Shown in pieces: positions 10,766 through 63,157 of a DNA stretch of 64,000 nt (position 1 is its first letter; every line of letters starts with the position of its first letter). The DNA is from an uncultured Candidatus Saccharibacteria bacterium (lineage in GTDB: Bacteria > Patescibacteriota > Minisyncoccia > Phycocordibacterales > UBA2100), in assembly GCA_964462785.1 (NCBI GenBank), contig CAYWZA010000003.1, positions 1 through 64,000 of the forward strand, written 5' to 3'. A model generated the notes under the pieces. It had not been told where the DNA came from. It did not search any database and saw only the letters and a program-made list of their open reading frames with translations. A program made the position numbers and the translations under genes.

Positions 10766-10817
10766 GCCTCCATTCTCTCACCCGCCCGCCCGCCCCACAA
10801 CCCGAAATCCCCATAAC

Positions 10818-10846: not shown

Positions 10847-10855
10847 GAGGAATAC

Positions 10856-10928: not shown

Positions 10929-10978
10929 CAAATTCGAGCAAAGCGAGAATTTTCCGTCAGGAAAAATACTCGTGACGA

Positions 10979-11671: not shown

Positions 11672-11686
11672 GCGATCACTATAGCA

Positions 11687-16302: not shown

Positions 16303-16304
16303 CA

Positions 16305-38010: not shown

Positions 38011-38018
38011 TGCGAATA

Positions 38019-39095: not shown

Positions 39096-39131
39096 ATAAA
39101 AACGATAATCTAATAGGTATTTGCACTATAC

Positions 39132-39330: not shown

Positions 39331-39356
39331 TGAACCTGTTTCATGCTAAGACCGCT

Positions 39357-40547: not shown

Positions 40548-40729
40548 ACGGTTGGTTAAATGTTTATGTAAATAAATTTATTACTATCGCTGCACATGCC
40601 ACAAGTTTCGACCCTTGCAACAGGTTTCGCAGCTACTATTTCCTATAGCAGAAATTATATAGGACATATTAGGCAACGAACTTCACCTGTTGTGGATAAC
40701 TGACTTCATGTCTCAGAGATTTCCTTATT

Positions 40730-42046: not shown

Positions 42047-42050
42047 GGTC

Positions 42051-43538: not shown

Positions 43539-43558
43539 AAATAAAGTATACCGTTGAA

Positions 43559-44878
43559 TTAAAAGACGGGTGTCACGATATACACGATATTCGTGCTATA
43601 TGAACCGGAGCCCTGCTCATTGTGTGCTTCGACCTTGTAAACAATGTCTGTGGTCTTTTCGGTTGCAGGCCCGCTGTTAAATGCAACTTCTTTGGGGCTT
43701 CCGGTGAACTGTGCATACGTGTCATTTGCGGCAAATCGCGTCGATCCGTTTTCCAGCACGTCCTCACCGGCGTGGTATCCATAGCATCCGTAAGCTCCTC
43801 CCGAACACCCAGTCCCCCACGCAAGCGGACTCTCGTTGGTGCCTGTTACGGGGCTGATTTCAGATGAATCAGCAAGAAGCCCTTGCCGTTGAAATGCATA
43901 TATTTTGTAGCCGGAAACCGAGTTGGCGGAAACGGTGAGCCGGTGAGCCGCCTCAGTCGGCGTACCTATCGCAAGCGTCCCAAATGGGACCGATGTCGAT
44001 GTCGTTTCCACATCGGTCGTCACCCCTTCGGTTGCAGTCGATGCGGCGAGCCCATCTATAGAGAATGAGAGTGCCGCTCCTTCCACCACCAGACTTGGAT
44101 ACGATTCGCCGGTATTGAGCGGCACCGTGCTGCTACTCACGACATCAAAGAGACGGAAGAAATACACGGTGTTAGCGACAGCGCCCGACTGCTTGAGTGT
44201 GAATTCATATTCGGTGATTGCGCTCGCTGTGTGCGTAAAGGTGCTGGTGGTCGTGCCGATTTCATTGTGCGTGCCGCAGCCGTTTCCAATCTGCAACGCA
44301 CACGCATCCGCATCGGAAAGTACTTTCGTGGTGATGGTCACGTTATCAACACCCGCACCGTTTGCATAGCACCAGCCCGAACTGCCAGTGCACTCCCAAT
44401 CGGCGGCAAGTGTGCGCACGTACTCTGAGAAATCAGAGGATGTCGCATACTGCAGACGGAATTTTATGTTGCCGGATCCCACTCCCGCCGTTTCAGCAAC
44501 TGACACGCGCAGCTTGATCGTGTTGAGGTTCGCGATATTAGTTGGTGCAGTGTTTTCAGCCGCAAGCGCAGTACTCGGCGTCACACTATTCTCATCGTCA
44601 TACCAGCGCCAATTTTGCGTCTTCGGCGTGAATGATTCGAAAAACATCTCGCCACCGTTCAAGGTGAAATTGGCGCTGCTCGCCGCTTCATTTGAGATCT
44701 CTCCCCCGCCACTTACATGCGTAAAGTTTGTCGAAGTCGACGTGCCGCCGACGTCATTCGTATTCGGATCTTTCGCGGTAAAATTCGTACTCGTAAAATC
44801 AGCCGCAAACGCAAACGGCGCGAAAATAACACTGACGAGTGTTACCATCACGACGCTGCTTGGTACGACTTTCTGCAT
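43559..44878 (-). CDS. Secreted WxL-like surface protein 2
   Basis: Signal peptide; SPLAWGTGCSGG and C-terminal YSTNIVYIVTPVF, same terminus as protein 1. Confidence 0.4.
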   Translation of the reverse strand: MQKVVPSSVVMVTLVSVIFAPFAFAADFTSTNFTAKDPNTNDVGGTSTSTNFTHVSGGGEISNEAASSANFTLNGGEMFFESFTPKTQNWRWYDDENSVTPSTALAAENTAPTNIANLNTIKLRVSVAETAGVGSGNIKFRLQYATSSDFSEYVRTLAADWECTGSSGWCYANGAGVDNVTITTKVLSDADACALQIGNGCGTHNEIGTTTSTFTHTASAITEYEFTLKQSGAVANTVYFFRLFDVVSSSTVPLNTGESYPSLVVEGAALSFSIDGLAASTATEGVTTDVETTSTSVPFGTLAIGTPTEAAHRLTVSANSVSGYKIYAFQRQGLLADSSEISPVTGTNESPLAWGTGCSGGAYGCYGYHAGEDVLENGSTRFAANDTYAQFTGSPKEVAFNSGPATEKTTDIVYKVEAHNEQGSGSYSTNIVYIVTPVF

Positions 44879-44880
44879 GG

Positions 44881-45345
44881 TTATTGAACTTCGGTTGTAA
44901 TTGGCGCCACCTCGATCAGTTTATTTTGAGCCGGATCATAGAGGTACGCTTTGCGCGCCTGCGTATAAATGAGCACTTTATATCCGACTTTTGCATTCGC
45001 GAAAAATGCTTGATCTTTCAATTTTTCAGGATCGGATACAGTCGCCACGGTCGGCTCCTCGCCTTCTGGGAGCGCAATAAGCCTGCCGACTTTTTCAATG
45101 AGATCTTTTGCCTCAATCGTCGTCTCGACTTCCGGCGTTGCGCTCTTGGTGTCAGTGGAAATTTCTGCTCCGTCTGGTTTGAAAAAGAAAACATACATTG
45201 CCCCGGCGAGTACGGCGAGAGCCACGAGCCCGATCACTGCCGGCGGCACTCGCCTCGGCGCAGGCGGTCGCAGCGCTGGGCTGGGACTCTCTGCCGCCAC
45301 CTTTGCCGGTCGCTTCAAACTCACTATCAGTGATTCGTCGTTCAT
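44881..45345 (-). CDS. Membrane-anchored hypothetical protein
   Basis: N-terminal Pro/Ala-rich region and one TM helix; tight spacing within the operon. Confidence 0.4.
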   Translation of the reverse strand: MNDESLIVSLKRPAKVAAESPSPALRPPAPRRVPPAVIGLVALAVLAGAMYVFFFKPDGAEISTDTKSATPEVETTIEAKDLIEKVGRLIALPEGEEPTVATVSDPEKLKDQAFFANAKVGYKVLIYTQARKAYLYDPAQNKLIEVAPITTEVQ

Positions 45346-45351: not shown

Positions 45352-48300
45352 TTATAATTCTGCACTACTAATAGCAGCCGCATCCCCCGTTTCAACCGCG
45401 GTTTCTGATGCCGGTTGTTCGCTTGGTGTTTCTGCTGCCGGTGTCGATTCGACAACCGAATCTTCCGACGCAGGCTCGGGATTTGCAGTTGTCTCCCCGG
45501 CCGGTGATTCTTGCGGCGCAGCCGGCTCACTGCTGCTTTCACCTTCCGCATCCACCGCTGTAACAGACATCATCGATTCATCAGCAGGGGGCATATCGGG
45601 CAGACCGTCTCCGACTACAACGACGCGCGTCACTTCAGCCACATGCCCATCAGAATCGACCGCGCGATACATAATCAAATATTCTGTGGATGAGCTGGTG
45701 TCGAGCATGACATGATCAACTTCCTCGCTATCGACAAACGTATAGATGCCGAGGTTTTGGTCTTTGTCGTCTGTCACGGTTGCGCCCAAGTCTATATACG
45801 TGTCCCCAATACCGATCTGCGCAGGATTGTTTCCGTTGAGCGTAATGACAGGGACTTCAATCGACGTCTTGGGAGCCGACGAATCTATTGTCGCCGTGAG
45901 ATCCTCTGCGCCACACTTCCCGGCAAATGTTTGCAGTATTCCCGAGACAACTTTTGCACAATACGGATCGCCGTTCATATCGTCATACATCGTGATGCCG
46001 GTCGGCTTCTCCGGAGAGCCGACTTCAAGACCGTTCGCCGTAAGCGCACCCGCGAAGAGTGCGTTGCCCAGCGCATCGACAGACACCAAAAGCGCCGCAT
46101 CCGAGCTTGATGCGTTTTCAAAGGTGAGCGTGAGATCATTTTCATTCACTCGTTCAATCAGTAGTCTTCCACCCTCCACGATCCGCATGCGAATATCTTT
46201 CTCGACCGGCTCGATGGCATTTACGACCAGCGTGTCTGCAATCACGCGCGGCGAAATAATTTCAAGTCCTGCCGCAAGACGATCAGTGAATACTTCGGAG
46301 AGCGTAGTTGCGACAGTGATCTCCTTTTTTTCTTGCAGCATGCCAGCAAGAATAATACGCCCGTAATCAAGATCCGACGTAATCACATCCATGTTGATTC
46401 CCGAGTCGCGCAGTGCTACTTTGAGAAGTGCCCCAGTGGAATATGATGTATTCACCATCACCAAGACGCTGCATTTCCCACTGTCGTCGCAGATAGCATC
46501 CTCAAGCGCGTGCCCGACAGTGACACCCGCCTTGGTAGCGCGCATGGCGACGCCCGGCTCGGATGAGACCGTGAGCAGATCCCCTGCTTTAATTTCACCG
46601 TTTTCTTTATTTGCCTTCACGGGCACGCGCCCGGCGAGCGCGATGGCGCGGGGATGCTTTGCTTTGCTGAATATGTCATACCCCATCGTCTCGTACGGCA
46701 CACTTGAAACTACACCGACCGCACTACTACCTTGCGTAGCCTTTTCAAGAACCGACGATTTCTGCAATCCGAGTTTCGAATCATATTCATAAGATGCTGT
46801 ACTGATAGCGACCACATCGCCGTGTTCGACATCATCTTTAGTCTCATACCACTCCGCCAAGTCAGCACCGCTCGATGTGTAGTTCATGGTGACAACGACA
46901 CCCTGTCCACCTTTCCCTCCTTGGGCTGCGGTGGTTGACTCTTCAACAATGCCACCACCCCCCCCTGAGCCATAGGCGAGACCCGCCTCGCCTTGCACTG
47001 ACTGAAGAGCGGCTGTGACGTGCCCGCCAGCCCCTCCCCCTCCCCAATAACTTGCGCCCCCGTTACCGCCAGTTCCCTCACCACCACTCAAGGCATTTGC
47101 TGCGCCGCCATTGCCACCCGCGAGACGGAGCTGCCCGACTGCCGTGGATGTCGCACCACCCGACCCACCCGCCAATCCTTCTGTGGCATTCGTATCGACT
47201 GAACTGTCTCCAAGCCCTCCCTGCCCTGCAAGCGCGACGACAAGCGAACCGAATGATGAATTGTTCCCCGCTGCGCCGGTGCCCGCAACACTCGTGGTGG
47301 CACCACCGTTGCCGACAGTAACCGTTTCAGTTGACCCCATGCTTTCTGCAGGAAGAATCGAAATTGAAGTACCTCCTGAACCCCCGCCTCCAGCGGCATC
47401 TTCACACGTCGTCGTATCTGAACAATCCGCTGCCCCACCCGCGCCACCTCCTGCAGTGACGATTATTTGTGTGAACGACAAGCCCGGATAATCTGCCTTG
47501 GTCCATGTGTCATTTAAAGTGAAGACCTCAACCGTGACTGCATCGACGCCTGTGTCCGAGCCACATACAACGGTGCCATTCGCATCGGTTTCAAGTGCCT
47601 TGGTGCAGTTCGTCAGCCCCGTGAGCTGCATCCGATTCGCTGCGATCCCGCCTGAAAATGTCGACGTCGAGTTTGTTCCTACGACATTCAAGAATCCCTG
47701 CAAGGTGGATGTGCCCGTCGTGCCGCCCTGAATCGTCGTCGTTGCGGTGCGACCGACTGTAATGTAATCGAGCCCGGAGATCGCGGTTGAGGACGCGTTC
47801 GTGATTGCAAGCAGCGCGGGAAGTGAGAGTGTCACCGCTCCCGTCGCGCCTGATGCAGAAATCTGATTCGTCGTACCAGTGATGGAGGTGACCCCACTGT
47901 TGGTTACGGCACCATCTGCATACGTGAGCCCGCCGGAGAAGGTGGTGGTCGCTGTCCATGTTGGTATGCCATTTAATAGTGCGAGTACCTGCCCTGCAGT
48001 GCCCGCCGTTGTCGTCGCAAGTGCGCTCGTGCCGTTACCATAGAGAATCGTGCCCGCGACAACACTCGCCCAGCCGGTGCCGCCATTACTCACACCAAGA
48101 ATACCTGCCACATCATTCGCCAGATCAACGAGCGTTGCCGTCACCACCCCGGCAACTGCTTTCAATATTCCTCCGGCAGTTCCGAAAGTGAATCCGTTTG
48201 AAACGACGAGATTCGAAGTGGAAGCATTGCCAGTAACCGCGAGTGTCGTTGATGTGGCATTGGTAATTGTAGATGTTGAAAACGAGGCACCGGATGCGGA

Positions 48301-48897
48301 GACCGCGCCGGTAAGCGCCATGCTTCCGCCGGAGAGCACAGGAATATTATTGCCCGTCGGTGTTTGTGACGGGGTGAACCCGCCCACAGTGCCCGCGTTG
48401 ATTGCGTACGCGGAAGAGAGGATGCGCTGACGCGGAGAAAGTGTCTCGTATGTTTCGACTCCATCCCCCGTCGCGCATGTCGCGCCCACCTTATCAGCAA
48501 CTTGCACGTTTAAATACACTTCATCGCTGTCTTGAAAATTGTAATCGAGCGTATCACCGCCAACGCTCGTGTCGCCGATGCCGACAGTAAACACTCCATT
48601 GATAACTGATACCGTCGAAGTTGATGGTCCTGAGGATGGCCACAGCTTCACATCACCCCCTCCCACCACCGCATCATCGTAAAGCGAGAAGGTGAAGCAA
48701 TAATCGGTCCCCGCACCACCGAGCAGCGTGCCGCTTTCATCCATGAGCCGCCCTTGATAGTTGAGAATTTTTGGCACACCGGTTGCGGCAAACGCCGGCG
48801 CAACAAAAATCACCATGAACACCACACCAAGGATGAATGCGATCATGCGCGAAGCATGAGCATGGGTGCGGCTACGTCGATACGCGCGTGCATTCAT
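45352..48897 (-). CDS. Giant secreted protein (~1180 aa) with tail-fibre-like repeats, a collagen/Gly-rich tract, a peptidase S74 intramolecular-chaperone domain, Ig-like regions and an acidic tail
   Basis: Signal peptide from the internal Met MNARAY... Gly-rich GGAGG repeats. S74 motif block ADLAEWYETKDDVEHGDVVAIS...AIALAGRVPVKANKENGEIKAGDLLTVSSEPGVAMRATKAG. The ATGA overlap couples its start to the upstream HTH gene stop. Confidence 0.6.
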   Translation of the reverse strand: MNARAYRRSRTHAHASRMIAFILGVVFMVIFVAPAFAATGVPKILNYQGRLMDESGTLLGGAGTDYCFTFSLYDDAVVGGGDVKLWPSSGPSTSTVSVINGVFTVGIGDTSVGGDTLDYNFQDSDEVYLNVQVADKVGATCATGDGVETYETLSPRQRILSSAYAINAGTVGGFTPSQTPTGNNIPVLSGGSMALTGAVSASGASFSTSTITNATSTTLAVTGNASTSNLVVSNGFTFGTAGGILKAVAGVVTATLVDLANDVAGILGVSNGGTGWASVVAGTILYGNGTSALATTTAGTAGQVLALLNGIPTWTATTTFSGGLTYADGAVTNSGVTSITGTTNQISASGATGAVTLSLPALLAITNASSTAISGLDYITVGRTATTTIQGGTTGTSTLQGFLNVVGTNSTSTFSGGIAANRMQLTGLTNCTKALETDANGTVVCGSDTGVDAVTVEVFTLNDTWTKADYPGLSFTQIIVTAGGGAGGAADCSDTTTCEDAAGGGGSGGTSISILPAESMGSTETVTVGNGGATTSVAGTGAAGNNSSFGSLVVALAGQGGLGDSSVDTNATEGLAGGSGGATSTAVGQLRLAGGNGGAANALSGGEGTGGNGGASYWGGGGAGGHVTAALQSVQGEAGLAYGSGGGGGIVEESTTAAQGGKGGQGVVVTMNYTSSGADLAEWYETKDDVEHGDVVAISTASYEYDSKLGLQKSSVLEKATQGSSAVGVVSSVPYETMGYDIFSKAKHPRAIALAGRVPVKANKENGEIKAGDLLTVSSEPGVAMRATKAGVTVGHALEDAICDDSGKCSVLVMVNTSYSTGALLKVALRDSGINMDVITSDLDYGRIILAGMLQEKKEITVATTLSEVFTDRLAAGLEIISPRVIADTLVVNAIEPVEKDIRMRIVEGGRLLIERVNENDLTLTFENASSSDAALLVSVDALGNALFAGALTANGLEVGSPEKPTGITMYDDMNGDPYCAKVVSGILQTFAGKCGAEDLTATIDSSAPKTSIEVPVITLNGNNPAQIGIGDTYIDLGATVTDDKDQNLGIYTFVDSEEVDHVMLDTSSSTEYLIMYRAVDSDGHVAEVTRVVVVGDGLPDMPPADESMMSVTAVDAEGESSSEPAAPQESPAGETTANPEPASEDSVVESTPAAETPSEQPASETAVETGDAAAISSAEL

Positions 48898-49295
48898 ACG
48901 GCTTGTGATCGCAATTCCCATTTTTCGAGATTGTTGCGCTCTATTTTGTGATCCACACTGACCGCAAATATATATCCGAGCATGAGGAGAAATATCGCAA
49001 ACACGCCCACCGCAAACCACACCACAGCCGTATATACCGACGTCATTCCTTCGGCGGAAAACAGCCATGCCGTAAACGATGCTGACTCTTCCTTGGATCC
49101 ATCCTGCCTTTTCTTGTTCTTATCTATATATTCACGAATAGCGCTTTCGGTCGTCACCCACACTACATTTGAAAACACCTGCTTGCCCGACAGCTTCCCC
49201 GCCCTGATAAGCTGCCCAATATAATCAGCGCTGTATCCGGATATCTCGGATGCCTCCTTAAGCGATATATAGTCATTTTCCTTTGTCATAGCCAT
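48894..49295 (-). CDS. Membrane-tethered HTH DNA-binding protein (MerR/excisionase-type HTH plus C-terminal TM)
   Basis: N-terminal SLKEASEISGYSADYIGQLIRAGKL HTH and C-terminal hydrophobic helix VVWFAVGVFAIFLLMLGYIFAV. Confidence 0.5.
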   Translation of the reverse strand: MAMTKENDYISLKEASEISGYSADYIGQLIRAGKLSGKQVFSNVVWVTTESAIREYIDKNKKRQDGSKEESASFTAWLFSAEGMTSVYTAVVWFAVGVFAIFLLMLGYIFAVSVDHKIERNNLEKWELRSQAV

Positions 49296-49377: not shown

Positions 49378-50241
49378 GTGCGCCAGACCCTGTGGACAAC
49401 TAAAGTGTGTTATGCTCTAGCAATGGCATGGCGTGATTATATCTTCAATATGAAGTATCTGGTCGGGGTTGCTCTTTTTTCAGTCATTCTCCTGCTTGGT
49501 GGTATATATTGGTACTTTTTCTTCGGGAAACCCCATTTTGACGAACTCACGCTGCGGGCTTTCGAGCAAGCACGCCTGATCGAGACATACCGACATGCAG
49601 TGGAGACGGATATAGACATCGCGGGGCGGCATCTGCACATAGCGGGGGTGTATGCGCTTGATCACAAAAAAGGGCACTTTTCCTCCATATCAACAACCAC
49701 GCTCACCATCCCCGATATGCCTGCGGGGAATCGTGAACATTCGTTTACCCTTGAAAACATCGCCGTCGAGCATGACGTGTTCACCCGTATCCAAACCAGC
49801 AGCTCGCACTTCAAAAAAACCATCCCCCATGGAAAGGAGTGGTTGCATTTTACGCCCGGGAATATTCCTGAAGAATTTCAAAACATTGCAGTGCATGGAC
49901 CCATTCTTGATAACCTTGGCTTATTTAGAGACGGTGAGCATCTGCTACTTCCTGCCGGCGCACCACGCGCTGACACACGTGATGGCAAAGCGCTGCAGCA
50001 ATACACATTCACACTGCAAAGCGGTGCTGCGAATAAAGTATCCGGCGCACTTGCGGCGGTGATCGAGCACATCGGCGCGGGCACCGTCAACGCATGGATT
50101 GATCCTGAAAGCGCCCAGCTCTACGCGCTCGCCTTCCACAATGCCACGTACCAATCAAAAACCATCATCATCGCCACCAGCACAGCAATAACAATCGAGC
50201 CTCCCGTTGATTTTGCTATTTCGCAACCTTTTCAACAGTGA
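49378..50241 (+). CDS. Membrane-anchored hypothetical protein
   Basis: N-terminal TM helix (YLVGVALFSVILLLGGIYWYFFF); transcribed divergently from the HTH gene. Confidence 0.4.
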   Translation: MRQTLWTTKVCYALAMAWRDYIFNMKYLVGVALFSVILLLGGIYWYFFFGKPHFDELTLRAFEQARLIETYRHAVETDIDIAGRHLHIAGVYALDHKKGHFSSISTTTLTIPDMPAGNREHSFTLENIAVEHDVFTRIQTSSSHFKKTIPHGKEWLHFTPGNIPEEFQNIAVHGPILDNLGLFRDGEHLLLPAGAPRADTRDGKALQQYTFTLQSGAANKVSGALAAVIEHIGAGTVNAWIDPESAQLYALAFHNATYQSKTIIIATSTAITIEPPVDFAISQPFQQ

Positions 50242-50279: not shown

Positions 50280-51008
50280 ATGCGCAGACTGCTGCGGAAA
50301 CACGCCCGAAGAATCACCCCTGGGCACGGCATCATCATTGCTGTGTTTCTCATATCGAGTGTGCTGGTACTTGATCAATCGGGTACTCCTTCCCTCTCAT
50401 TTATTTCTGATCGTCCCTCATTTTCCATCGGTGAAGTCGGAAATGTTGCTGTGCACATTGAAACCCCTACCCCGATAAATGCGACCGGCATGATCATCAC
50501 CTATTCTTCGGAGCTCGTGCGTATCGTCGATATTGAAACGAAAGGGTCATTCATCGATTTGTGGACGCAAGAGCCTATTGTGCGCGCAGATGGTGAGATA
50601 CACCTGAGCGGCGGCACGCTCATCGCGGGCGGACTCACGGGCACAAGCACCGTGCTTGATATTGAAATTGAGGCGAAGCAGGCTGGCACTGCAGTATTTG
50701 CGTTTAAAAACTCGGAAATTATCGCAAGCGACGGCAGCGGCACGGCGCTCAAGCACACTGCAGATCCATTGAGCATCCAGATTGTTGAAAAAAGCGCTGC
50801 ACCTCAGAAGGGCGGAGGGGGAAGCAGCGCAACAGCAACACCCACCACTCCGATATTTGATCTTAACGCCGACGGCAGAGTCACCCTCGTCGACGTCTCG
50901 ATCCTTCTGGTGCATATGTTTGCTGCATACGATCGAGCATACGATTTTGATACCGATGGCTCCATCGGTCTCTCCGATCTCTCCGCTCTGTTGGCGCGTG
51001 TTCAATAG
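50280..51008 (+). CDS. Membrane-anchored protein with a cohesin-like domain and a C-terminal dockerin-like repeat pair (adaptor)
   Basis: N-terminal TM. Cohesin-like block (...GTAVFAFKNSEIIASDGSGTAL...). C-terminal FDLNADGRVTLVDVSILL...DFDTDGSIGLSDLSALL. Confidence 0.5.
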   Translation: MRRLLRKHARRITPGHGIIIAVFLISSVLVLDQSGTPSLSFISDRPSFSIGEVGNVAVHIETPTPINATGMIITYSSELVRIVDIETKGSFIDLWTQEPIVRADGEIHLSGGTLIAGGLTGTSTVLDIEIEAKQAGTAVFAFKNSEIIASDGSGTALKHTADPLSIQIVEKSAAPQKGGGGSSATATPTTPIFDLNADGRVTLVDVSILLVHMFAAYDRAYDFDTDGSIGLSDLSALLARVQ

Positions 51009-51145
51009 ATTGTGCGTGACATCCCACCATCTTAAGTGTGTCTTGAAAATCGATGCAATGCGCGAAGCGGACGAGCACCGAGCCGAGCCGTATTGAATAT
51101 ACGGTGAGGGAGGCGCGGAGTCCGCGACAAAGCAGTGCGCGATTT

Positions 51146-52132
51146 TCAAGACACACTATCCATACGATAGCGGTGCAGCATATAGGCGGCGCCAAATCCT
51201 GCGATGAAGAGCAGCACAAGAAACGGGATAAGTGCTGAGGCGACTCCTGCAATGGACGCAAGCGCGGCGGCTGCTCCTTCGGCACGAATATCAAATTTGA
51301 TGCGTTTGGACGGCTCACTTTCCACGCCACTTGCGTCAACTGCCTGCGCCCAGAGGCGGTAGACGCCCGTCTCAAGATCCATATCAGAGACAAACGTGAA
51401 CGATCCGTCTGCCGCGCTCGTCACGCGTGTCAACACTTTCGGCTCATCGCCCCGTGCGAGCCAGATGTGGATGGCTGCGTCGGGAATCGCTGTCCCACGG
51501 ACTATCACGCGTTCTCCAAGCGGGACCGTCCCAAATGGATACTCCACGAGTGCCGGGGCTGGCGGAAGTGCCGGCTGATCAATTGACGCCCCCAGGACCT
51601 GCCCCTCTTCCACTATCTCTTCTTCAGGTAGTGCTGCAATGACTTGTTTCGGCTCTATGCCATAGATACCTGAGCGCATTGCGGTGATGATATTCGACCC
51701 CTTGCCGTCTGCAGAGAGCAGCGCACCGGAGGTGAGGCGTGCGGTGCTCAACGTGGTTCGTAATGCACGGAACGTGATCGTCGCCAAGAGTCCGTCAGTA
51801 CCGGCATACTTGCTATTCGTCCAACCGGAGAATCGGATCGTGCCTTCTTCATTTGAAAATTTAGGCGGCGTAGGCCAGAGCGAGAGAATCGAGCCGTATG
51901 TCGATACGTCTTCGACAACGAGCTCGTTAGGATCGAATAGGATCTCGGCTTCGGCTGCATTGATCGCAGTATCGCCCGTATCGGCGAGCACCTGCACATC
52001 AAAAAAATCGCCCACCGCGTACGTCCCGCGCTCGGGTGACACGTAAAGAACCGCATCTGCCGCAGCTACAAACGGGAGCGACACACATAACGCGCTGAGA
52101 AAAAATGAGACGCGAACGACGGACCGGTTCAT
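51146..52132 (-). CDS. Cohesin-like domain protein with a C-terminal TM anchor
   Basis: Signal peptide, a cohesin-like region (...ILFDPNELVV...GLLATITFRAL...) and a C-terminal TM helix. Confidence 0.5.
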   Translation of the reverse strand: MNRSVVRVSFFLSALCVSLPFVAAADAVLYVSPERGTYAVGDFFDVQVLADTGDTAINAAEAEILFDPNELVVEDVSTYGSILSLWPTPPKFSNEEGTIRFSGWTNSKYAGTDGLLATITFRALRTTLSTARLTSGALLSADGKGSNIITAMRSGIYGIEPKQVIAALPEEEIVEEGQVLGASIDQPALPPAPALVEYPFGTVPLGERVIVRGTAIPDAAIHIWLARGDEPKVLTRVTSAADGSFTFVSDMDLETGVYRLWAQAVDASGVESEPSKRIKFDIRAEGAAAALASIAGVASALIPFLVLLFIAGFGAAYMLHRYRMDSVS

Positions 52133-53073
52133 GGTGTGGGCGGGTTCTCAACATGTGCAGCGCGCCTATGAAGACCCATACCAATAATGACCAAAAATAC
52201 CAGTAGCACAGCAACGAATGGCGCAAAATCCCAGAGTGTCCATTGACGCGGCGGCGCAGAGCCTTCTTTGTATATCCCCAACCGCTCATTCCCCGCCTTA
52301 TCTATCGCGCGAATGCGAATGTCGGAGAGTGTCTGATCGCGCAGCGCATACGGGCTCGTGATGGTTTTCCATGCGCCGTTTTCACGTATTTCAAAGTGAT
52401 CAATGCCACTTTGCTTATCCTGAGTTGCAAATACCGCATAGTAGCGACCGCTGAAAATGCCGCGCGTCGATTGCACTTCGATTTCAAACGCATCGGGTGA
52501 TGTCTCATCAGACTGCACCTCCGCTATCCAAGGATTCTCCGGCACCGTCGGCTGCGCGGTGGTCATGATGGTGGCACTTCCCGTCTTGATGGCAGCCTGC
52601 GTGCCCAAGCCGTCGTTTACGTATGCGCGTGACGCGTCGGTAATCACAATAGGGGCACTGTGAGCGTCGTCAATGACCATGAAAATGATTCTGCCGAGCG
52701 TGTTGCTGAGTGCAGGATCCCCGTGAATACGTCCGCAGTAGCCTCCCGGCACTCCGCCCGCAAAGGAAACAATTCCTTTTTCTATATCGATCTTCGGCTC
52801 CTCCGCCCACAGGGTGAGGATTGAATTGCCGCGGCTGAAATCCACTGCCTTGAGTACGTCGACGGGATACTGCACCGATACTTGCATCGCATTCAAACAC
52901 TCTTCTTCGTTATCAATACGCACACTCATGATGAAGGTATCCCCCACCCCATAGAGCGCCTCGGATGGATCAAGATACAGATACGCGGCGTGCGCAGAAA
53001 ACGGCGCGAACAATAACACGCATAGGAAAAAACTTCTGGCAAACCACTGCATGTTATTAGTATACATTGTCAT
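52129..53073 (-). CDS. Cohesin-like domain protein with a C-terminal TM anchor (paralog)
   Basis: Signal peptide, a cohesin-like region (...VSVQYPVDVLKAV...GRIIFMVI...) and a C-terminal TM helix. Confidence 0.5.
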   Translation of the reverse strand: MTMYTNNMQWFARSFFLCVLLFAPFSAHAAYLYLDPSEALYGVGDTFIMSVRIDNEEECLNAMQVSVQYPVDVLKAVDFSRGNSILTLWAEEPKIDIEKGIVSFAGGVPGGYCGRIHGDPALSNTLGRIIFMVIDDAHSAPIVITDASRAYVNDGLGTQAAIKTGSATIMTTAQPTVPENPWIAEVQSDETSPDAFEIEVQSTRGIFSGRYYAVFATQDKQSGIDHFEIRENGAWKTITSPYALRDQTLSDIRIRAIDKAGNERLGIYKEGSAPPRQWTLWDFAPFVAVLLVFLVIIGMGLHRRAAHVENPPTP

Positions 53074-53078
53074 ACGCT

Positions 53079-54206
53079 CTAGCCGGTCCAGTTAAAGAGG
53101 AGTATGGAGAAGTCTGCCAAATTCACTGTCCCATCAAGATTAAAGTCATGTTTGATATCCTTACCCCCCCAACTCAAAAGAAAGATCGAGAAGTCCACGA
53201 GATTGACGCGCTTGTCGCCATTCACATCGGCAGAGGAAGCACCTCCGGAGGCAACTCCGTCCCCGATAGTAAAGCTGACCGAGCGTCCGAATCCGCTCTT
53301 CACCGTATCACTCAACTCGAAGAGGGCTTTTGCGGAGTGCGCGCCCGCTGAAAGTGTGGATGTATCGAGACGAAGCGCCCATTTTCCCGAACCGTCCGCT
53401 TGTGCGTTGAGTATCGCCTCAGCTTGCGGGTTTATCTGCGCTTCTATACCTGCGTTTGGCACTGCATATCCCGACACGGTGAGATCATCACCAGGAGCAA
53501 CGGTACGACTGCTCACCGCGGTGGTGGGTGGAAGAAAAATATTTGCGACGGTGGTAACAGCGCTTTGTACAACCTCGAATACCACCGAGTTGATTGTCGA
53601 ATCCGCCCCCGCCGGATCTTTGGCCCACACGCCAAACGTCGCCGTCCCCGGCGTAATATCAGTCGTACTGAAAATAAAATCTGCCTGCGCATCCGCCTTT
53701 GCAGTCCCTTTGAGTTTTCCATCGAGCAGAATGTTGACGGTGCTGTTAGGATACGCCTTGCCGCGCAAAACTACCTTCGTCGCTATCTCAGAGAGGATGG
53801 AGCCGAGCGGCGCACCGGGCACAAACGGTGTGCTCCCCACCGCGGGTGCCCCACCACCACCTGGCGGCACCGGAGTGAGCGGCGTGCACATCACATCGCA
53901 CAGATCCCCTGCTTCATTGTCGCCATCGTCGCATTGCTCGCCAAATCGCACTTGCAACGTGCTGTCGCCGCAGTACGGACCCCAGCTGATACAATCTGCA
54001 GCGCAGATGCGACCTGTTGTCGACGAAGCATACGAGCCGACGTTGTTGCCTGTCCCTAAATCACATATCTCTGTGCCCGTCACCAAACCGTCACCGCATA
54101 CCGCAACGGTCACGAATGGTCGCATCGCAATTGCCTCGACGCGACCGGTGCTATTCCCAATGGCGATCAGTGAAAGCGCTATGAGAATGGACGCGATAAT
54201 CTGCAT
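53079..54206 (-). CDS. Secreted Cys-rich-repeat protein with a C-terminal dockerin-like domain
   Basis: Signal peptide, CGDGxVTGTEICD / CGDSTLQVRFGEQCDDGD Cys-rich repeats, a Pro/Gly linker, and C-terminal DVNGDKRVNLVDFSIFL...DFNLDGTVNLADFSILL. Confidence 0.55.
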   Translation of the reverse strand: MQIIASILIALSLIAIGNSTGRVEAIAMRPFVTVAVCGDGLVTGTEICDLGTGNNVGSYASSTTGRICAADCISWGPYCGDSTLQVRFGEQCDDGDNEAGDLCDVMCTPLTPVPPGGGGAPAVGSTPFVPGAPLGSILSEIATKVVLRGKAYPNSTVNILLDGKLKGTAKADAQADFIFSTTDITPGTATFGVWAKDPAGADSTINSVVFEVVQSAVTTVANIFLPPTTAVSSRTVAPGDDLTVSGYAVPNAGIEAQINPQAEAILNAQADGSGKWALRLDTSTLSAGAHSAKALFELSDTVKSGFGRSVSFTIGDGVASGGASSADVNGDKRVNLVDFSIFLLSWGGKDIKHDFNLDGTVNLADFSILLFNWTG

Positions 54207-54228: not shown

Positions 54229-55239
54229 TTATAGAAGCTGCGTCGTCTTTGGGTAAACTCGCATGCGAGCGCGCCTACGCCTGCGCACGACCACAGCGCC
54301 GCCCATAGTGCCGACGAGCGCGACCGGCATACCCAGATAGCTCAGTGCTTTCAATTTGTCTTGGAGCGACAGACCGGAGAATCCATACCCCTCGTAGCCG
54401 GCAACAGTGCCCAGAGGATTGATACTCACGGTGATTTGGTTCTGCTGGGCGATCTCATCGCCTCTGTAGATGGTGTATTTCGCTGCGTATCGCCCCGGAG
54501 GGAGGCGGGTCGGCAATTCGGCTATCACTTCTTTTGTGCCGAAGGGCGAAATCCGCTCGATATCATTTGTATTTTCGATGGACTCAAGGAGTGTCTCCAT
54601 TTCGCTGTCATACATATCAAAGGTCACCTTGCTGGGACCATATTCCGTGTTGCCGGTGTTCTCAATTGTCATGAGGAACTTGATTTTCCCGGGGAAGAAG
54701 AGGCCCCAACGCGTACGCCCCTCTTCCAAGTCAAGCACGCCTATTTTGCGCACGCTGAAATCATAGATTTTGTCGACAACGGTCACATCCACATCGATCT
54801 GTGCGCCGAGTGCGATCGATACGCCGCCTGATGGTTGCGGCGAATTGGGTGATGTGCGGACACGAATCGCACCTTTGTATTGCTTATATTCGGCGTCATC
54901 GGGCACGCGCACGGTGACCACCATAGAGATCTGCGACGCACCCTTAGGGATGATAAATTCGCGCCCGCGATCAATAGAGAACCAGCTTTCGATGCCGGGG
55001 ATGTTCATCGTAACCTCCACCTTGAGATCCTCATTCGGATCGGAGCGCACCAAGCCGATGCGCTGCTCGTATACAGTACCGCGCGTGAGACGATCATTGA
55101 AAACATATGGCGGCGTGATGCCGAAACCAGCGTCCGCGACGGGCGCGAATGTGAAAAAAGCCGCTGCAGTGGCAATACCAAATAAAAAATGCCCGTACAA
55201 AATCCTCGTTCTCTCTGTGTTGTTAAGTAAAAATTGCAT
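54229..55239 (-). CDS. DUF916/DUF3324-like cell-surface protein, paralog D
   Basis: Signal peptide, two beta-sandwich-like regions, C-terminal TM plus an Arg-rich tail. Confidence 0.45.
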   Translation of the reverse strand: MQFLLNNTERTRILYGHFLFGIATAAAFFTFAPVADAGFGITPPYVFNDRLTRGTVYEQRIGLVRSDPNEDLKVEVTMNIPGIESWFSIDRGREFIIPKGASQISMVVTVRVPDDAEYKQYKGAIRVRTSPNSPQPSGGVSIALGAQIDVDVTVVDKIYDFSVRKIGVLDLEEGRTRWGLFFPGKIKFLMTIENTGNTEYGPSKVTFDMYDSEMETLLESIENTNDIERISPFGTKEVIAELPTRLPPGRYAAKYTIYRGDEIAQQNQITVSINPLGTVAGYEGYGFSGLSLQDKLKALSYLGMPVALVGTMGGAVVVRRRRRARMRVYPKTTQLL

Positions 55240-55304: not shown

Positions 55305-57248
55305 TTACCAGAATGATGAGTTGCTTTTCTTTCCCGTAATGGTGTTTTGTCCGGTGTAGCTGCCGGCAAGCGTGATGGCACTCGGGATGTTGATACCCCA
55401 ATAGTTGTATTTCGTCTGCGGAGAGCTGGTGGAGGTTGTTTTCGGCACGCGAATTTCAAACGATAGTGGCGAGGTGGAGGCGGTAATGGAATATGCCTCG
55501 GCATGGGAGTATGCGACTGATGTGGTAGCAACCTTCTGATTGGAGATCGGGATTTCGCGTGTGGAATCAATACCCCCTGCATCGCACGAATCCGCTACGG
55601 TCCAGTCCGTACACATGGTGTCGCCGTAAATATCTTCATCGAGGCCGACGTTACCCTGCGCGATCAGATCAGACGTGGTGGAAACGGCGAGCTGCTGCCC
55701 CGGCTCCAAGCTGCCGTAGAGAACCGAAGTGCTGGAGACATTGAACGCAAGGAAACTTTCGACGTCTCTGCTGTCGTCGGTGGTATCTGCCGTGAGTGTA
55801 CTCGAAGCGGCGTTGTCATCCTGAATACGCACCGATGCTTCCCATCGCTCGGATGTCCATGGAGTGGAGGCGTCTGTCGGATCGGCAATATACCAGAGCG
55901 GGAATGTACACTCCCAATCCACTGTGGGATCGGAGGCGCCACTGCATGCGCCGGAGCCCGTAGTCGTCGCAGCACAGGTCATGCCCGAGGGAAAACCGGT
56001 AAATAGTGTCGAAGTAGCTGCGTAGCAGTTGTTGGCATTGTATTCAGATGCCGTATCGCATCCGGTTTGCCCAACACCACTGCGATACACGGCGGTCACT
56101 GCAAAGGTCGTCTCGGCGCCGCCTGAGGAATTGAGGCAGCTGTTGTTGTCGGTCGCGGTGAAATGGACACGATACGGGCCCGAGGTGGAGACGGCTTGCC
56201 AGAGCGTGAGGCTGCCACCGGGGACGGGGTTGCTGCTGCTGTAGCTGTCGATAAGGGTGATCGTTGATCCATCAACAGCCGGAGCGACGTTATTGACGGA
56301 GAAGGTTGAATTGGAGCCGTAAATGGTCGATGTCGCCACTAGCCCGTGGCTGTCTATCATATACACGTATGCATTGTAGGATTTATCCTGAAGCGGAGTG
56401 GTGAGTGTGGTCGTTGTCGCTGCGTTTGAGGCAGCGAACGTGGACGTCGCCCATGAGCCACCCGCGCCGCAATAGGTTCCGTTGAAGTCGTTTGATTTAC
56501 AGACGAATAACTGCACCGTATCTGGCGTGCCTGTCGCGTCATTATCATACGCTGTGGATGTCCATGTGACCGTGCCACCCGGATCCTCCGGTCCGTCGTT
56601 AACGACGGCGGAAAATACCGGCGGGTGGTTCATCACGAATGGCGAGAATCTGCCATACGTCGATCTCCCCTGCTTCATTGCTCCGTTGCATCGCGCAAGC
56701 GACGCGTTTGCGTCGCACACATACGCGTACCATGCGTTGCCCTCTTGATCGAATGGAAAATATTCAATAGTGGATGTCGATGCTGTGGCATCTGAAGCGC
56801 TCGTAGTTGTTGCCGAGCGTGCCCAGCGATTTGATACACCACCGCCACACTCAGGTGGTGCATTTGAAGTCGCGGTCGGGGTGCTGCTTGCTTTGCAAAT
56901 CAATAAGAAATAATCGTCGTTGTTGGAATCAGTCGCACGTGCAGTCCATGAGATCGTGGCCCCTGCGTTCGTGGGAGTTGAGGTGGATGACTCTGCGGTT
57001 TCCTCTGCGTCGAGCGTCCATTGCGGCGGTGTGTTGAGCACGGTGACAGAGGTCGATACGTCGTCCGCGCGTGCTTCCGGCACACGCACTTCGAACATCA
57101 CGAAAAATATGAGCGCGGCAAGCGCAGTGGTGCCGAGCACGGTGGCAACGGCAATTTTTCCTGAATTGAAATGTGCATCGGAAAAATCTTCTGTGTCAAA
57201 AAATGAGAGCCGTGCGCGCATAGCAAAAAAGACTTCCCTCAATCTCAT
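55305..57248 (-). CDS. Large Thr/Ser-rich surface protein with repeated Ig/cadherin-like modules (adhesin-like)
   Basis: N-terminal TM/signal anchor. Repeated module starts NTPPQWT / NHPPVFS / NNVAPAV. Confidence 0.5.
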   Translation of the reverse strand: MRLREVFFAMRARLSFFDTEDFSDAHFNSGKIAVATVLGTTALAALIFFVMFEVRVPEARADDVSTSVTVLNTPPQWTLDAEETAESSTSTPTNAGATISWTARATDSNNDDYFLLICKASSTPTATSNAPPECGGGVSNRWARSATTTSASDATASTSTIEYFPFDQEGNAWYAYVCDANASLARCNGAMKQGRSTYGRFSPFVMNHPPVFSAVVNDGPEDPGGTVTWTSTAYDNDATGTPDTVQLFVCKSNDFNGTYCGAGGSWATSTFAASNAATTTTLTTPLQDKSYNAYVYMIDSHGLVATSTIYGSNSTFSVNNVAPAVDGSTITLIDSYSSSNPVPGGSLTLWQAVSTSGPYRVHFTATDNNSCLNSSGGAETTFAVTAVYRSGVGQTGCDTASEYNANNCYAATSTLFTGFPSGMTCAATTTGSGACSGASDPTVDWECTFPLWYIADPTDASTPWTSERWEASVRIQDDNAASSTLTADTTDDSRDVESFLAFNVSSTSVLYGSLEPGQQLAVSTTSDLIAQGNVGLDEDIYGDTMCTDWTVADSCDAGGIDSTREIPISNQKVATTSVAYSHAEAYSITASTSPLSFEIRVPKTTSTSSPQTKYNYWGINIPSAITLAGSYTGQNTITGKKSNSSFW

Positions 57249-57656: not shown

Positions 57657-58865
57657 CTATTTGTATCTAATGGCGTCTAGGGGGTTGATTTTAGCGGCGC
57701 GGCGCGCAGGAAAGAGACCGGTGAGAAAGCCAACCCCCGCAGAGAATACTGCAATGAAAGTGATGAATGATAGCGGATATCTGAACAGGCTCACTGCTTC
57801 ACCACCGAAATTGCCTGCGGCAACGGCAAGCAATCCGTTGAGTATCACCCCGATGCCAACCCCGATACCGATACCGACAACACCTCCGAGGAATCCCACA
57901 ATAAGTGCTTCGGAAACGAACAGGATGACGATATCGCGTGACGACGCGCCGATGGTACGCATGACGCCGATTTCCGCAGTACGTTCAAGAAGTGTCACCG
58001 TCATTGTGTTGAACATGCCGATTGCAGAGACGGTAAGCGCGATCCCACCAAAGACCGCGAGCACCGCTTGAATGCCTTGGAAAATTTTGTTTGCTTGCTC
58101 GACTGTTTTTGAAAGCGCGGTCACGACGAATCCCTGTGCGATGATGCTATCTTGCACCGGTACTAATGAGTCGCTATCGAGGACGCGCACCTGCACGCGC
58201 TCATAAAATGGAATCTGGAAGTATGTCGAAAATTCATCGAGCGGAATGATGGATACGAGCGACGCCTCGTCGCTGGTCACCGCTTTAATTTTATATTCTT
58301 TATTGATCGGCACTTCAGTGACATCTTCGCTCCCCTCTTGCTTTACGAACACCCGAAACGTGATGCGTTTACCAATTGCATCTTCGGGATTTTCCAATCC
58401 AAAGAGTTTGAGCATCGCGATGGAGATAATTGCGGTGTCGCGATCTTCGAATGCAGTGTCAATCGAGAATAATTCCCCCGCCGATGCCTTGCCTCCAGTG
58501 TAGAGAAAGTAGGAAGGCTTCATGCCCTGCAGCGTGGTGTTGCCGGTGAGTCCTTCAAACGTCACTAAGGCGGGAAAACTTGCCATAGGCGAGATATCTT
58601 TCACCAACTCATTTGCAGCTATGGCGTCCACGGTCGCCTGGTCAAGCTTCACCGTAAGCGACGGCGGGTTTGCCACATTCAAGCTGAGGAGTGTCTCACC
58701 AAAGACGATGCGCTCAAGGATGATCCCTTGCAAACCAAAGCCCAAACCCACCAACGTGACCACCGCGCCCGTGCCGACGCCCATGCCCAAAATCGTGAGC
58801 CAAGTACGCGACGGGTTTGTCTTAAACATGCGCGTCGAGAGCATCAAAATATCCTTCATTTGCAT
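57657..58865 (-). CDS. ABC transporter permease, FtsX/MacB-like
   Basis: N-terminal TM, large extracytoplasmic domain and three C-terminal TM helices with the FtsX-like pattern. Confidence 0.75.
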   Translation of the reverse strand: MQMKDILMLSTRMFKTNPSRTWLTILGMGVGTGAVVTLVGLGFGLQGIILERIVFGETLLSLNVANPPSLTVKLDQATVDAIAANELVKDISPMASFPALVTFEGLTGNTTLQGMKPSYFLYTGGKASAGELFSIDTAFEDRDTAIISIAMLKLFGLENPEDAIGKRITFRVFVKQEGSEDVTEVPINKEYKIKAVTSDEASLVSIIPLDEFSTYFQIPFYERVQVRVLDSDSLVPVQDSIIAQGFVVTALSKTVEQANKIFQGIQAVLAVFGGIALTVSAIGMFNTMTVTLLERTAEIGVMRTIGASSRDIVILFVSEALIVGFLGGVVGIGIGVGIGVILNGLLAVAAGNFGGEAVSLFRYPLSFITFIAVFSAGVGFLTGLFPARRAAKINPLDAIRYK

Positions 58866-58871
58866 ACTGTT

Positions 58872-60218
58872 TTACGAATGAGCGCCCAAGAGTTCGTTAG
58901 GCTTAATGACATATCCTCCCTGCGCAATTAATTTCTCAAGATATCGGGAAATGAGGTACGCCTTATCGGTATCGAACGCCATGCCGCCCAAATGGAGCGG
59001 GAGTGAGAGCCGCCTTTCAAAATCGTCCCCCGTGATGATGCCGCCGACGCGCTCAGCAACGCTCTCCTGCAAGACCTTAAGCTGATCCGCGGATGCATGT
59101 AATTCAATTTCCCCTTTGATATACGTTAAAACGCTTTCAATAAATTTCTGTTGATGCAGAAACATATCGTCGTGGTGCATTTCCTCGCGAAACTTTGCGA
59201 CATCGCGCGAGTAATTCACCAACGTAAAAAGATTTTTTGCGATGCGACTCACCTCTTCCGCATGCATACCCACTCCCCCGTTCACGATAGGTTTCAACAA
59301 ATATTCTGCAAACATCTCCTCATCCATAGTGCCTTTGATAACTTCAAGCACTGCTTTTTCGAGCCGCTCGATTTGCGTGAAGCCAATACTCTGCGTCGCA
59401 AAGTTCACCAAACTTTTCACTTTGAGTTCAATCGGCTCGGCATAGGGATAGAGACGTGCGAGCTGTTCAATCTCAGTAACGATGGTCTCGCCGGGCTTTA
59501 CGCGTTTGATCTGCGGCTTTTCCGGATTCACCACAATGCGACGCAACACCCCATCGCGCATATAAAAGACGCGGTGTGCATACGGCAAATATTTGGCATC
59601 GTGCGTGACGAGAATCACCGTCTTTCTATCTTTCTCGTTAATCTCCTCGAAACTGTCCATAACGTGCTCGGCGGAGATACTGTCGAGGTTTCCCACCGGC
59701 TCATCAGCAAGCAAAATCTCGGGGTCGTTCACCAACGCGCGCGCCACGGCGACGCGCTGCTGCTGCCCACCGGACATGAGGATGGGAAGCTTCTTTTCGA
59801 GCATGTCATTGATGCCAAAACGCCGCAGCAATACCCGCGCGCGATCATTACGCTCCGCAACGGTTTTGTTCAAAAACACCATGGGGAGCGCCACGTTGTC
59901 GAGCACGGTGATTGAGGAAATGAGGTTGAACTGCTGGTACACGATGCCGATAGTGGTTTGCTGGTAGGCGTTCATTTCTGCGGGCGTATAGCGATAAATA
60001 TCTTCGCCGCGCACCAGCATGCGCCCATCCGCAGGCGGCACACCACCAAGAATCGTATAGAGCAGTGTCGATTTCCCACAGCCTGAGGGACCGAACAGAA
60101 TAATGTATTCGCGCGGATAAATTTCTACATTGATATTCTTGAGTGCATTGAATTCATTCGCCAAACCCTTGTTGTAGGTGATGAACATTTTATCCGTCTG
60201 CACTGATGTCTTCGACAT
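58872..60218 (-). CDS. ABC transporter ATP-binding protein (MacB-type) with a ~220-aa C-terminal extension
   Basis: Walker A GPSGCGKSTLL, signature LSGGQQQRVAVARAL, Walker B LLADEP. Start at an internal Met. Confidence 0.8.
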   Translation of the reverse strand: MSKTSVQTDKMFITYNKGLANEFNALKNINVEIYPREYIILFGPSGCGKSTLLYTILGGVPPADGRMLVRGEDIYRYTPAEMNAYQQTTIGIVYQQFNLISSITVLDNVALPMVFLNKTVAERNDRARVLLRRFGINDMLEKKLPILMSGGQQQRVAVARALVNDPEILLADEPVGNLDSISAEHVMDSFEEINEKDRKTVILVTHDAKYLPYAHRVFYMRDGVLRRIVVNPEKPQIKRVKPGETIVTEIEQLARLYPYAEPIELKVKSLVNFATQSIGFTQIERLEKAVLEVIKGTMDEEMFAEYLLKPIVNGGVGMHAEEVSRIAKNLFTLVNYSRDVAKFREEMHHDDMFLHQQKFIESVLTYIKGEIELHASADQLKVLQESVAERVGGIITGDDFERRLSLPLHLGGMAFDTDKAYLISRYLEKLIAQGGYVIKPNELLGAHS

Positions 60219-60252
60219 ACATACAGTGTAGCAAACCAAATGCTCTGCATGA

Positions 60253-62500: not shown

Positions 62501-62518
62501 GGTTTGTGCATTTTTGTG

Positions 62519-62602
62519 TGGGCACGAGAAGACTCGAACTTCCAAGAGGTTGCCCTCACTAGCTCCTGAAGCTAGCGCGTCTACCAATTCCGCCACGTGC
62601 CC
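62519..62602 (-). tRNA. tRNA-Leu (anticodon CAG)
   Basis: Manual fold of the reverse complement: acceptor GGGCACG/CGTGCCC, anticodon stem CTAGC/GCTAG with loop TTCAGGA, long variable arm, T-loop TTCGAGT. Confidence 0.8.
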
Positions 62603-63027: not shown

Positions 63028-63083
63028 TCGCTCTGTGGGTCTTTGTTTTGTGCCTGTGAAATAAGAGTTGGTACCGCCCTGCG

Positions 63084-63157
63084 TGCGCGTGATAGGACTC
63101 GAACCTATGACCTCGTCATTATCAGTGACGTGCTCTAACCAGCTGAGCTACACGCGC
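63084..63157 (-). tRNA. tRNA-Ile (anticodon GAU)
   Basis: Manual fold of the reverse complement: acceptor GCGCGTG/CACGCGC, D-arm GCTC-AGCTGGTTA-GAGC, anticodon stem CGTCA/TGACG with loop CTGATAA, T-arm ATAGG-TTCGAGT-CCTAT. Confidence 0.8.

Follow-up and report, generated by a model that had tools for sequence, protein, structure and literature searches.

The 64-kb stretch of DNA analyzed here (the window) carries a locus of cohesin and dockerin genes that probably encodes a non-cellulosomal system for surface display in a bacterium of the Patescibacteria (Paceibacterota/Minisyncoccia type). Two single-pass membrane proteins, cohA (51146-52132, minus strand) and cohB (52129-53073, minus strand), would each hold one cohesin at the outer tip of an immunoglobulin (Ig)-like stalk. 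The predicted Sec-exported cargo proteins, cysDoc (53079-54206, minus strand) and doc591 (35808-37583, minus strand), would combine a variable N-terminal head and a common two-Ig cassette with a calcium-binding dockerin at the extreme C-terminus. By plugging non-covalently into the cohesins, the cargo would place interchangeable, probably adhesive heads on display on the cell. A fifth protein (50280-51008, plus strand), called the adaptor in an earlier note made from this DNA (the original prediction) and Coh-Doc here, joins a cohesin to a dockerin. Module identities, calcium ligands, topology, and the conservation of gene couples are the observations from which we infer cohesin-dockerin binding, partner choice, and an adhesive or host-attachment role.

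Organization of the Locus

The five open reading frames (ORFs) behind the original prediction are all present, at the coordinates given above, in the list of ORFs and translations for the window. Four of them are closely spaced between 50280 and 54206. On the minus strand, cysDoc and cohB are separated by a 5-nt gap and cohB and cohA overlap by 4 nt, while the Coh-Doc gene converges on them from the plus strand; doc591 lies ~15 kb from this group. A census of the window with a motif scan and hidden Markov models (HMMs) built from these modules counts exactly three cohesins and three dockerins, finds no further copy of either in the 64 kb, and assigns a single cohesin module to every cohesin protein. 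Relatives of the locus proteins come from metagenome-assembled genomes of Paceibacterota, Minisyncoccia, and Adlerbacteria type, all within Patescibacteria, the candidate phyla radiation (CPR). A promoter and terminator scan of 48.8-57.8 kb gave counts no higher than the shuffle expectation.

Cohesin Modules

The predicted cohesin of cohA is assigned on its match to the Pfam Cohesin model (PF00963), which at 35.5 bits exceeds the gathering score of 24.1 bits. From N- to C-terminus the protein comprises a signal peptide, the cohesin (residues ~27-160), an Ig-like stalk (Big_13, 22.6 bits, residues 213-280), a transmembrane (TM) helix (residues 294-312), and a basic tail. Thirty homologues share this architecture, and most of them carry a precomputed PF00963 annotation; a phmmer search of cohA against Protein Data Bank (PDB) sequences returned chance-level matches only. 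The layout of cohB is comparable, with a signal peptide, a cohesin (residues ~30-172) in which C59 and C113 are invariant, an OmpL47-type beta domain (residues 215-263), and a C-terminal TM helix (residues 283-301). It matches NCBIfam NF047446 and has more than 722 homologues, some of which NCBI already names "cohesin domain-containing protein [Minisyncoccia]", so the domain had been annotated before.

Comparison with hhalign of family alignments built from syntenic loci indicates that the cohesin families of cohA, cohB, and Coh-Doc are clearly homologous. The cohA and cohB families align at 99.9%, and the Coh-Doc family aligns with cohA at 99.6% (E 5e-25) and with cohB at 99.4%, compared with less than 5% for two unrelated neighbor families used as controls. 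The AlphaFold2 (AF2) model of cohB, built from 109 homologues, has a predicted local distance difference test (pLDDT) score of 91.3 and the series of strands expected for a cohesin. Foldseek places only cohesins among its first 48 PDB matches, with TM scores up to 0.82 and root-mean-square deviations of 2.7-2.9 Å. In the Coh-Doc model, built from four sequences, confidence is limited to the cohesin (pLDDT 70-90), for which the top Foldseek matches are again cohesins, led by the non-cellulosomal ones of Clostridium perfringens. The nine-stranded jelly-roll that the original prediction had set as a structural check is thereby recovered by AF2 and Foldseek for both proteins. The fold matches of cohB and Coh-Doc span type I, II, and III cohesins without discriminating among them. 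Cohesins bind dockerins through their 8-3-6-5 sheet, and the most conserved cohB columns are located in strands assigned to β3, β5, β6, and β8, a placement that is suggestive only.

By hydropathy, cohA and cohB each begin with a segment resembling a signal peptide and have one TM helix at the C-terminus with basic residues after it, in agreement with their earlier description as TM-anchored cohesin proteins with signal peptides. Because the TM helix follows the Ig-like stalk in both, their cohesins would lie at the distal end of the stalk.

Dockerin Modules and Their Cargo

A type I dockerin consists of two ~22-residue repeats, each with an EF-hand-like loop that carries Asp or Asn at positions 1, 3, 5, 9, and 12 and is followed by a helix. 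The calcium ligands D1, N/D/S3, D5, and D12 are intact in all six dockerin repeats of the window, which bears out the original prediction on the alignment it had proposed; position 9 of the Coh-Doc repeats is T or G. Alignment places the repeats in register with the solved type I dockerins DocCel5 and the GH48 dockerin, and none of the ligand columns varies among 17 cysDoc orthologues. The Pfam Dockerin_1 model (PF00404, gathering score 22.9 bits) is matched by cysDoc at 24.7 bits and doc591 at 27.2 bits, as well as by 17/17 cysDoc and 13/17 Coh-Doc orthologues.

Two dockerin subtypes can be told apart. The cargo type ends in DFSI[LM]LFNWTG-COOH, and the Coh-Doc type is more variable. The two cargo dockerins, which had been described as near-identical, share 36 of 50 residues (72%), and full identity is confined to the last 15. 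Concerted evolution of the pair within the genome was considered and rejected, as the window pair is no closer than orthologues elsewhere (60-78%). Upstream of the dockerin lies a Gly-rich linker in Coh-Doc, and Ig-like domains plus a ~12-residue Gly/Ser linker in the cargo.

The picture of cysDoc and doc591 as cargo proteins with a secreted-type N-terminus and a C-terminal dockerin stands, since hydropathy finds an N-terminal signal-like segment only. In cysDoc, annotated with Pfam and NCBIfam, the predicted signal peptide is followed by a head of two Cys-rich acidic repeats with eight invariant Cys (residues 37-107, window 53886-54098), a Pro/Gly linker, two Ig-like domains (Big_6), and the dockerin (residues 324-375). 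The repeats had been called EGF-like. They match no EGF model in Pfam or NCBIfam and belong instead to DUF4215 (PF13948), which is matched by 17/17 orthologues, and to TIGR02232 (myxo_disulf_rpt; 28.2 bits, threshold 20.8). In the PDB, the DUF4215 repeat finds a counterpart in a module of human pappalysin-1 and pappalysin-2 (E 1e-5 to 8e-5) through the pattern CGDG...CDDGN...C...C.

In doc591, a signal peptide and an unrelated head of ~300 aa precede two Ig-like domains and a dockerin of the cysDoc subtype (Dockerin_1, residues 542-591), and the orthologue alignment shows two invariant Cys. Residues ~340-591 of doc591 are homologous to residues 145-375 of cysDoc, which reveals a common two-Ig-plus-dockerin cassette under different heads. 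Translation of doc591 probably begins downstream of the listed TTG start. An ATG at 37514 (MMMTARLCC...) would give a normal signal peptide, agrees with the starts of orthologues, and leaves no overlap with the gene upstream. The protein collection searched does not contain the exact 591-aa sequence.

Cohesins and dockerins are the defining modules of cellulosomes, and the dockerins could in principle recruit carbohydrate-active enzymes (CAZymes) encoded elsewhere in the genome to a polysaccharide-degrading complex. The visible DNA is only 64 kb of that genome, and a HMMER search with the 56-aa cargo dockerin against 1.84 billion representatives yields 2337 matches, many of them unclassified. 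Against such a complex, Pfam and NCBIfam find no glycoside hydrolase (GH), carbohydrate esterase (CE), polysaccharide lyase (PL), or carbohydrate-binding module (CBM) domain in the cargo families or the neighboring genes, and there is no multi-cohesin scaffoldin. Among the best 150 of the 2337 matches, moreover, the two non-enzymatic cargo families account for 80 (27 from the cysDoc family and 53 from the doc591 family), and the remainder consists of fragments, tandem-repeat proteins, and a small number of further proteins with a single dockerin. A cellulosome-like function is accordingly very improbable, and the surface-display system remains the better description of these modules.

The Coh-Doc Protein

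The original prediction gave Coh-Doc an N-terminal TM segment, a cohesin, and a C-terminal dockerin, and this layout stands: a hydrophobic segment at residues 12-30, a cohesin at ~36-170, a Gly-rich linker, and a dockerin at 192-242 with two calcium loops. Beyond hhalign, AF2, and Foldseek, the cohesin assignment draws on orthologues, 6/17 of which match Pfam Cohesin (best 3e-8). The family profile matches solved dockerins in the PDB, the best being the C. perfringens NagH dockerin (2jnk/2ozn).

The adaptor role itself, as a soluble bridge, is doubtful because the protein has its own N-terminal membrane segment. Hydropathy places a single hydrophobic segment after a strongly basic stretch, with no clear Ala-x-Ala site, so the segment is probably a signal anchor. 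With such an anchor, the cohesin would lie at the membrane surface and the divergent dockerin would extend on a flexible Gly-rich tether. Coh-Doc may therefore be a third anchor or a cross-linker rather than a soluble bridge; most likely it would cross-link to cohB or cohA, or add a third docking site. The fusion occurs only in the clade of the window, at 14 distinct loci, and in 0/80 metagenome loci. The co-oriented gene directly upstream, r287 (49378-50241, plus strand), encodes an N-terminal TM protein without a family match and stays with the Coh-Doc gene in nine loci.

Conservation of Gene Order

Two independent sets of loci show how firmly dockerin and cohesin genes are coupled. Across ~17 Paceibacterota-type genome loci, the order ABC ATPase, FtsX/MacB permease, p647, p336, cysDoc, cohB, cohA is kept, followed on the opposite strand by the Coh-Doc gene, r287, a small helix-turn-helix (HTH)-TM protein, and a giant Gly-rich protein. 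The second set, collected with the doc591 family as the only entry point and independently of the genome loci, comprises 80 metagenome loci. Within it, 50 cargo genes have at least 2.5 kb of downstream DNA, and in 44 of these a cohesin gene starts within 3 kb downstream on the same strand. In most lineages doc591 is directly followed by a cohA-type cohesin gene. The six exceptions among the 50 belong to the clade of the window itself, and a TlpA-like gene occupies that place in four of them (L024, L026, L028, and L041).

Class-specific HMMs separate the three paralogous cohesin classes cleanly, with margins of 30-119 bits. The cohesin adjoining a cargo gene is cohA-type when single, cohB then cohA when double, and never Coh-Doc-type. 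The arrangements seen after rearrangement are doc591-cohA alone, doc591-cohB-cohA-cohA, and cysDoc-cohB-cohA. Adjacency this deeply conserved, in 44/50 metagenome cases and ~17 genome loci, argues that the products of the dockerin and cohesin genes work together.

One metagenome contig, L092 (Ga0315312_1000997), carries two complete cargo-cohesin-cohesin units ~7 kb apart (26-13057), the first with a 911-aa dockerin protein. A genome can thus hold the unit in duplicate, with different cargo in each copy.

Selective Constraint and Choice of Partner

The putative interaction modules are also the slowest to change. Among 58 cargo-cohA pairs, the cargo evolves most slowly in its dockerin (mean distance 0.44, compared with 1.14 for the Ig cassette) and cohA in its cohesin (0.78 vs 1.36), which indicates that both are under the strongest selection. 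Since the cargo gene followed by a cohA-type cohesin gene is the minimal couple in most lineages, the cargo-type dockerin most likely binds the cohA-type cohesin, and this would be the primary pair of the display system. As a partner for the Coh-Doc dockerin, cohB is proposed only tentatively; cohB and Coh-Doc might also supply a second docking site or a cross-link.

Several results weigh against the proposed system. The Pfam scores of two proteins fall short: cohB matches Cohesin at only 15.7 bits, below threshold, and Coh-Doc has no Pfam Cohesin match and a Dockerin_1 score of 18.7 bits, also below threshold. In the Coh-Doc model, the dockerin part has a pLDDT below 45 and is of no use for intramolecular docking. 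In the clade of the window, doc591 does not lie beside a cohesin gene. Finally, two mirror-tree analyses find no co-evolution beyond phylogeny. The one on the 58 cargo-cohA pairs gives a partial Mantel r of 0.08 (p ~0.12); in the other, on a sample of 11 genomes that is too small and non-independent, the best partial correlation after controlling for FtsX, p336, and p647 distances, 0.59, joins the cohB cohesin to the Coh-Doc dockerin. The lack of a co-evolution signal fits a conserved, possibly universal interface, and is no proof of interaction.

The same null result speaks for a rival reading in which the two module types do not pair at all. The dockerin-like ends would then be calcium-stabilized EF-hand tails, the cohesin-like modules generic beta-sandwich spacers or ligand-binding domains, and the genes neighbors merely as parts of one envelope locus. 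The dockerin repeats do match EF-hand models as well, and cohesin-like folds exist beyond dockerin binding, such as the CLIPPER domain 9ifr among the weaker fold matches. Mere neighborhood, however, does not account for a cargo-cohesin adjacency that outlives the rearrangements reshuffling the rest of the locus, for a dockerin far more conserved than the remaining cargo, or for a protein family, Coh-Doc, that fuses exactly these two module types. The absence of pairing is for these reasons quite unlikely.

A different question is whether pairing follows one specificity or two. The original prediction saw a network of two orthogonal specificities arranged in a hierarchy, like the type I/type II pairs of cellulosomes: the cargo dockerins would bind one class of cohesin and the divergent Coh-Doc dockerin another, and Coh-Doc would bridge cargo to anchor. 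The two clearly different dockerin subtypes, the clean separation of three cohesin classes, and the correlation of 0.59 all speak for such a network. That correlation nonetheless comes from the 11 non-independent genomes, and Coh-Doc, with its own membrane segment, need not bridge anything. It is missing from most lineages that keep cargo, cohB, and cohA, so the system works without it. Against the analogy with type II pairs, the type I model is matched by every one of the three dockerins (by that of Coh-Doc below threshold), and Pfam detects no X-module family beside any of them. Two orthogonal specificities are unnecessary in lineages without Coh-Doc, yet possible; for the locus as a whole, the hierarchical network is a doubtful but still credible arrangement.

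Comparison with Known Systems

Pairs of cohesins and dockerins outside cellulosomes are already established for C. perfringens and Archaeoglobus. The C. perfringens NagH/NagJ toxin/glycosidase complexes resemble the locus in using single cohesins and single dockerins outside cellulose degradation. The likeness extends to the modules themselves, as the best PDB sequence match of the Coh-Doc profile is the NagH dockerin (2ozn, 2jnk) and the best fold matches of its model are the cohesins 2vo8, 2w1n, and 2jh2. The C. perfringens modules, in contrast, are carried by secreted glycoside hydrolases, whereas here they reside on TM-anchored stalks and on cargo without an enzyme domain.

Cellulosome anchoring scaffoldins such as C. 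thermocellum OlpA/OlpC (3ul4, 4dh2) share with the proposed system a single surface cohesin that captures a C-terminal two-repeat Ca2+ dockerin. The fold matches of the cohB model include the OlpC and OlpA cohesins, and the dockerin repeats of the window align residue for residue with A. cellulolyticus DocCel5 (5nrk/5nrm). Anchoring differs, with a C-terminal TM helix here in place of an S-layer homology (SLH) domain or sortase, and there is no multi-cohesin scaffoldin, CBM, or CAZyme cargo. Without scaffoldin and CAZymes, the locus fails the defining features of a cellulosome.

For anaerobic methanotrophic archaea (ANME), a role of cohesins and dockerins in tethering functional proteins to the envelope and in contact between cells has been proposed (PMC9012536). 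The same paper, which cites the survey of Peer et al. 2009, places these modules in non-cellulolytic, partly syntrophic or cell-associated organisms. An archaeal structure, Archaeoglobus fulgidus 2xdh, is among the Coh-Doc fold matches. Archaeal sets vary between close relatives, whereas here a fixed syntenic operon extends across many Patescibacteria and the cargo families have their two-Ig-plus-dockerin cassette in common. A literature search on cohesins and dockerins in Patescibacteria, CPR, and Parcubacteria found no description of the locus and returned only CAZyme surveys and papers on Omnitrophota and ANME.

Neighboring Genes

The cohesin-dockerin unit is part of a supercluster of ~24 kb (35.8-60.2 kb) that also holds a MacB-type ABC transporter, WxLIP-like membrane proteins, and a giant Gly-rich fiber protein. 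The transporter pair at the head of the cluster (57657-60239, minus strand; Pfam, synteny) consists of an FtsX/MacB_PCD permease (57657-58865, minus strand) and an ABC ATPase (58872-60239, minus strand) of 455 aa, in which ABC_tran covers residues 33-182 and a C-terminal extension of ~220 aa has no family match. Its synteny is kept in 15/17 loci, and after the rearrangement in L030 the trio of ABC ATPase, FtsX, and p647 stays with the cohesin-dockerin unit. Between FtsX and p336 lies p647 (55305-57248, minus strand), by synteny and hydropathy an extracellular protein with an N-terminal TM segment and 14 Cys. It has no Pfam match, and its candidacy as a homologue of p396 or p439 in a duplicated cassette was rejected (hhalign at most 1%).

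The immediate upstream neighbor of cysDoc in every genome locus, p336 (54229-55239, minus strand), encodes a signal peptide, a two-domain ectodomain, a C-terminal TM helix, and a poly-Arg tail. Together with p358, p438, and p495, it forms one paralogous family of ectodomains with a C-terminal TM helix (hhalign 98.4-95.6%, with 98.4% for p336 vs the p358 family; window 38019-45345 and 54229-55239). Directly upstream of doc591 is the three-gene unit p396-p358-p151 (37555-40547, minus strand), which encodes a secreted protein, a WxLIP_PGBD-like TM protein, and a small 2-TM protein, respectively; the order p396-p358-(p151)-doc591 recurs in more than 25 metagenome loci. Since p336 is a paralogue of p358, the window holds two parallel units of a p358-family protein, a dockerin cargo, and, in one case, cohesins.

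These membrane-anchored ectodomains beside secreted partners recall the WxL/Csc loci (DUF916/WxLIP) of Gram-positive bacteria. The WxLIP_PGBD match of p358 is weak (23.5 bits), however, and all WxLIP matches of the family fall below the Pfam threshold. The proteins p396 and p439 have a C-terminal domain in common (hhalign 99.7%) that ends in Y[IV]xTPVF, and Pfam finds no WxL domain in either even at E up to 5, so the likeness is a resemblance only.

Downstream of doc591 lies a thioredoxin-fold oxidoreductase (35200-35733, minus strand), which the original prediction proposed as servicing the disulfides of the Cys-rich cargo. The gene does encode a membrane-anchored oxidoreductase of TlpA/Redoxin type (Pfam Redoxin, 65 bits), with a CxxC motif (WCPYC) and an N-terminal TM anchor. 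It adjoins doc591 and lies ~17 kb from cysDoc, so its placement beside the Cys-rich cargo did not stand. The adjacency to doc591 is kept in only the four close relatives named above, and in more distant lineages a cohesin gene occupies its position. A role in cargo disulfide formation is at best weakly suggested by these data.

Immediately ahead of a 1238-aa Gly_rich_2/Bact_surface_Ig-like protein lies a small one (48894-49295) that combines an HTH at its N-terminus with a TM helix at its C-terminus (the pair spans 45352-49295). Most relatives keep the two in synteny with the cohesin cluster, and there the larger protein extends beyond 2600 aa. The N-terminus of the 1238-aa protein bears a weak likeness to the N-domain of the Bdellovibrio mosaic adhesive trimer fiber, at 16.9 bits and far below the cutoff.

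Other Features of the Window

Outside the main cluster, a 514-aa protein with PG_binding_1 and two PKD domains (9221-10765) is a predicted envelope protein. Positions 1-4000 form a low-GC island (0.36-0.38 vs ~0.53 elsewhere) with genes for a TdeIII-type restriction endonuclease (690-1499), an N6/N4 DNA methylase (1503-3077), and an S24 LexA/repressor-like peptidase (3096-3731), and this island is probably a horizontally acquired restriction-modification cassette. ARAGORN locates a tmRNA gene (15916-16303; tag ANKTARGILSPIQMKDLGFVYATA) and, at 10856-10929, 62518-62602, and 63083-63157, two tRNA-Ile (anticodons TAT and GAT) and one tRNA-Leu (CAG).

Implications

The locus would extend the cohesin-dockerin principle to a major uncultured radiation, with anchoring by TM helices and not by SLH domains or sortase. 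As a putative, conserved operon-level display system with non-enzymatic, head-swappable cargo, it yields hypotheses on nine module pairs and on calcium dependence that are testable with recombinant protein, and it offers a marker for comparative genomics of host range. To our knowledge, host attachment in CPR/Patescibacteria is largely unknown, and almost none of these bacteria have been cultured. A broader and decidedly speculative proposal, more likely wrong than right, is that the system represents a Patescibacteria-wide modular host-attachment organelle coupled by cohesin-dockerin pairs, in which interchangeable adhesin heads are swapped onto TM-anchored cohesins. If this is true, episymbiotic ultra-small bacteria could retarget their surface without altering the anchor.

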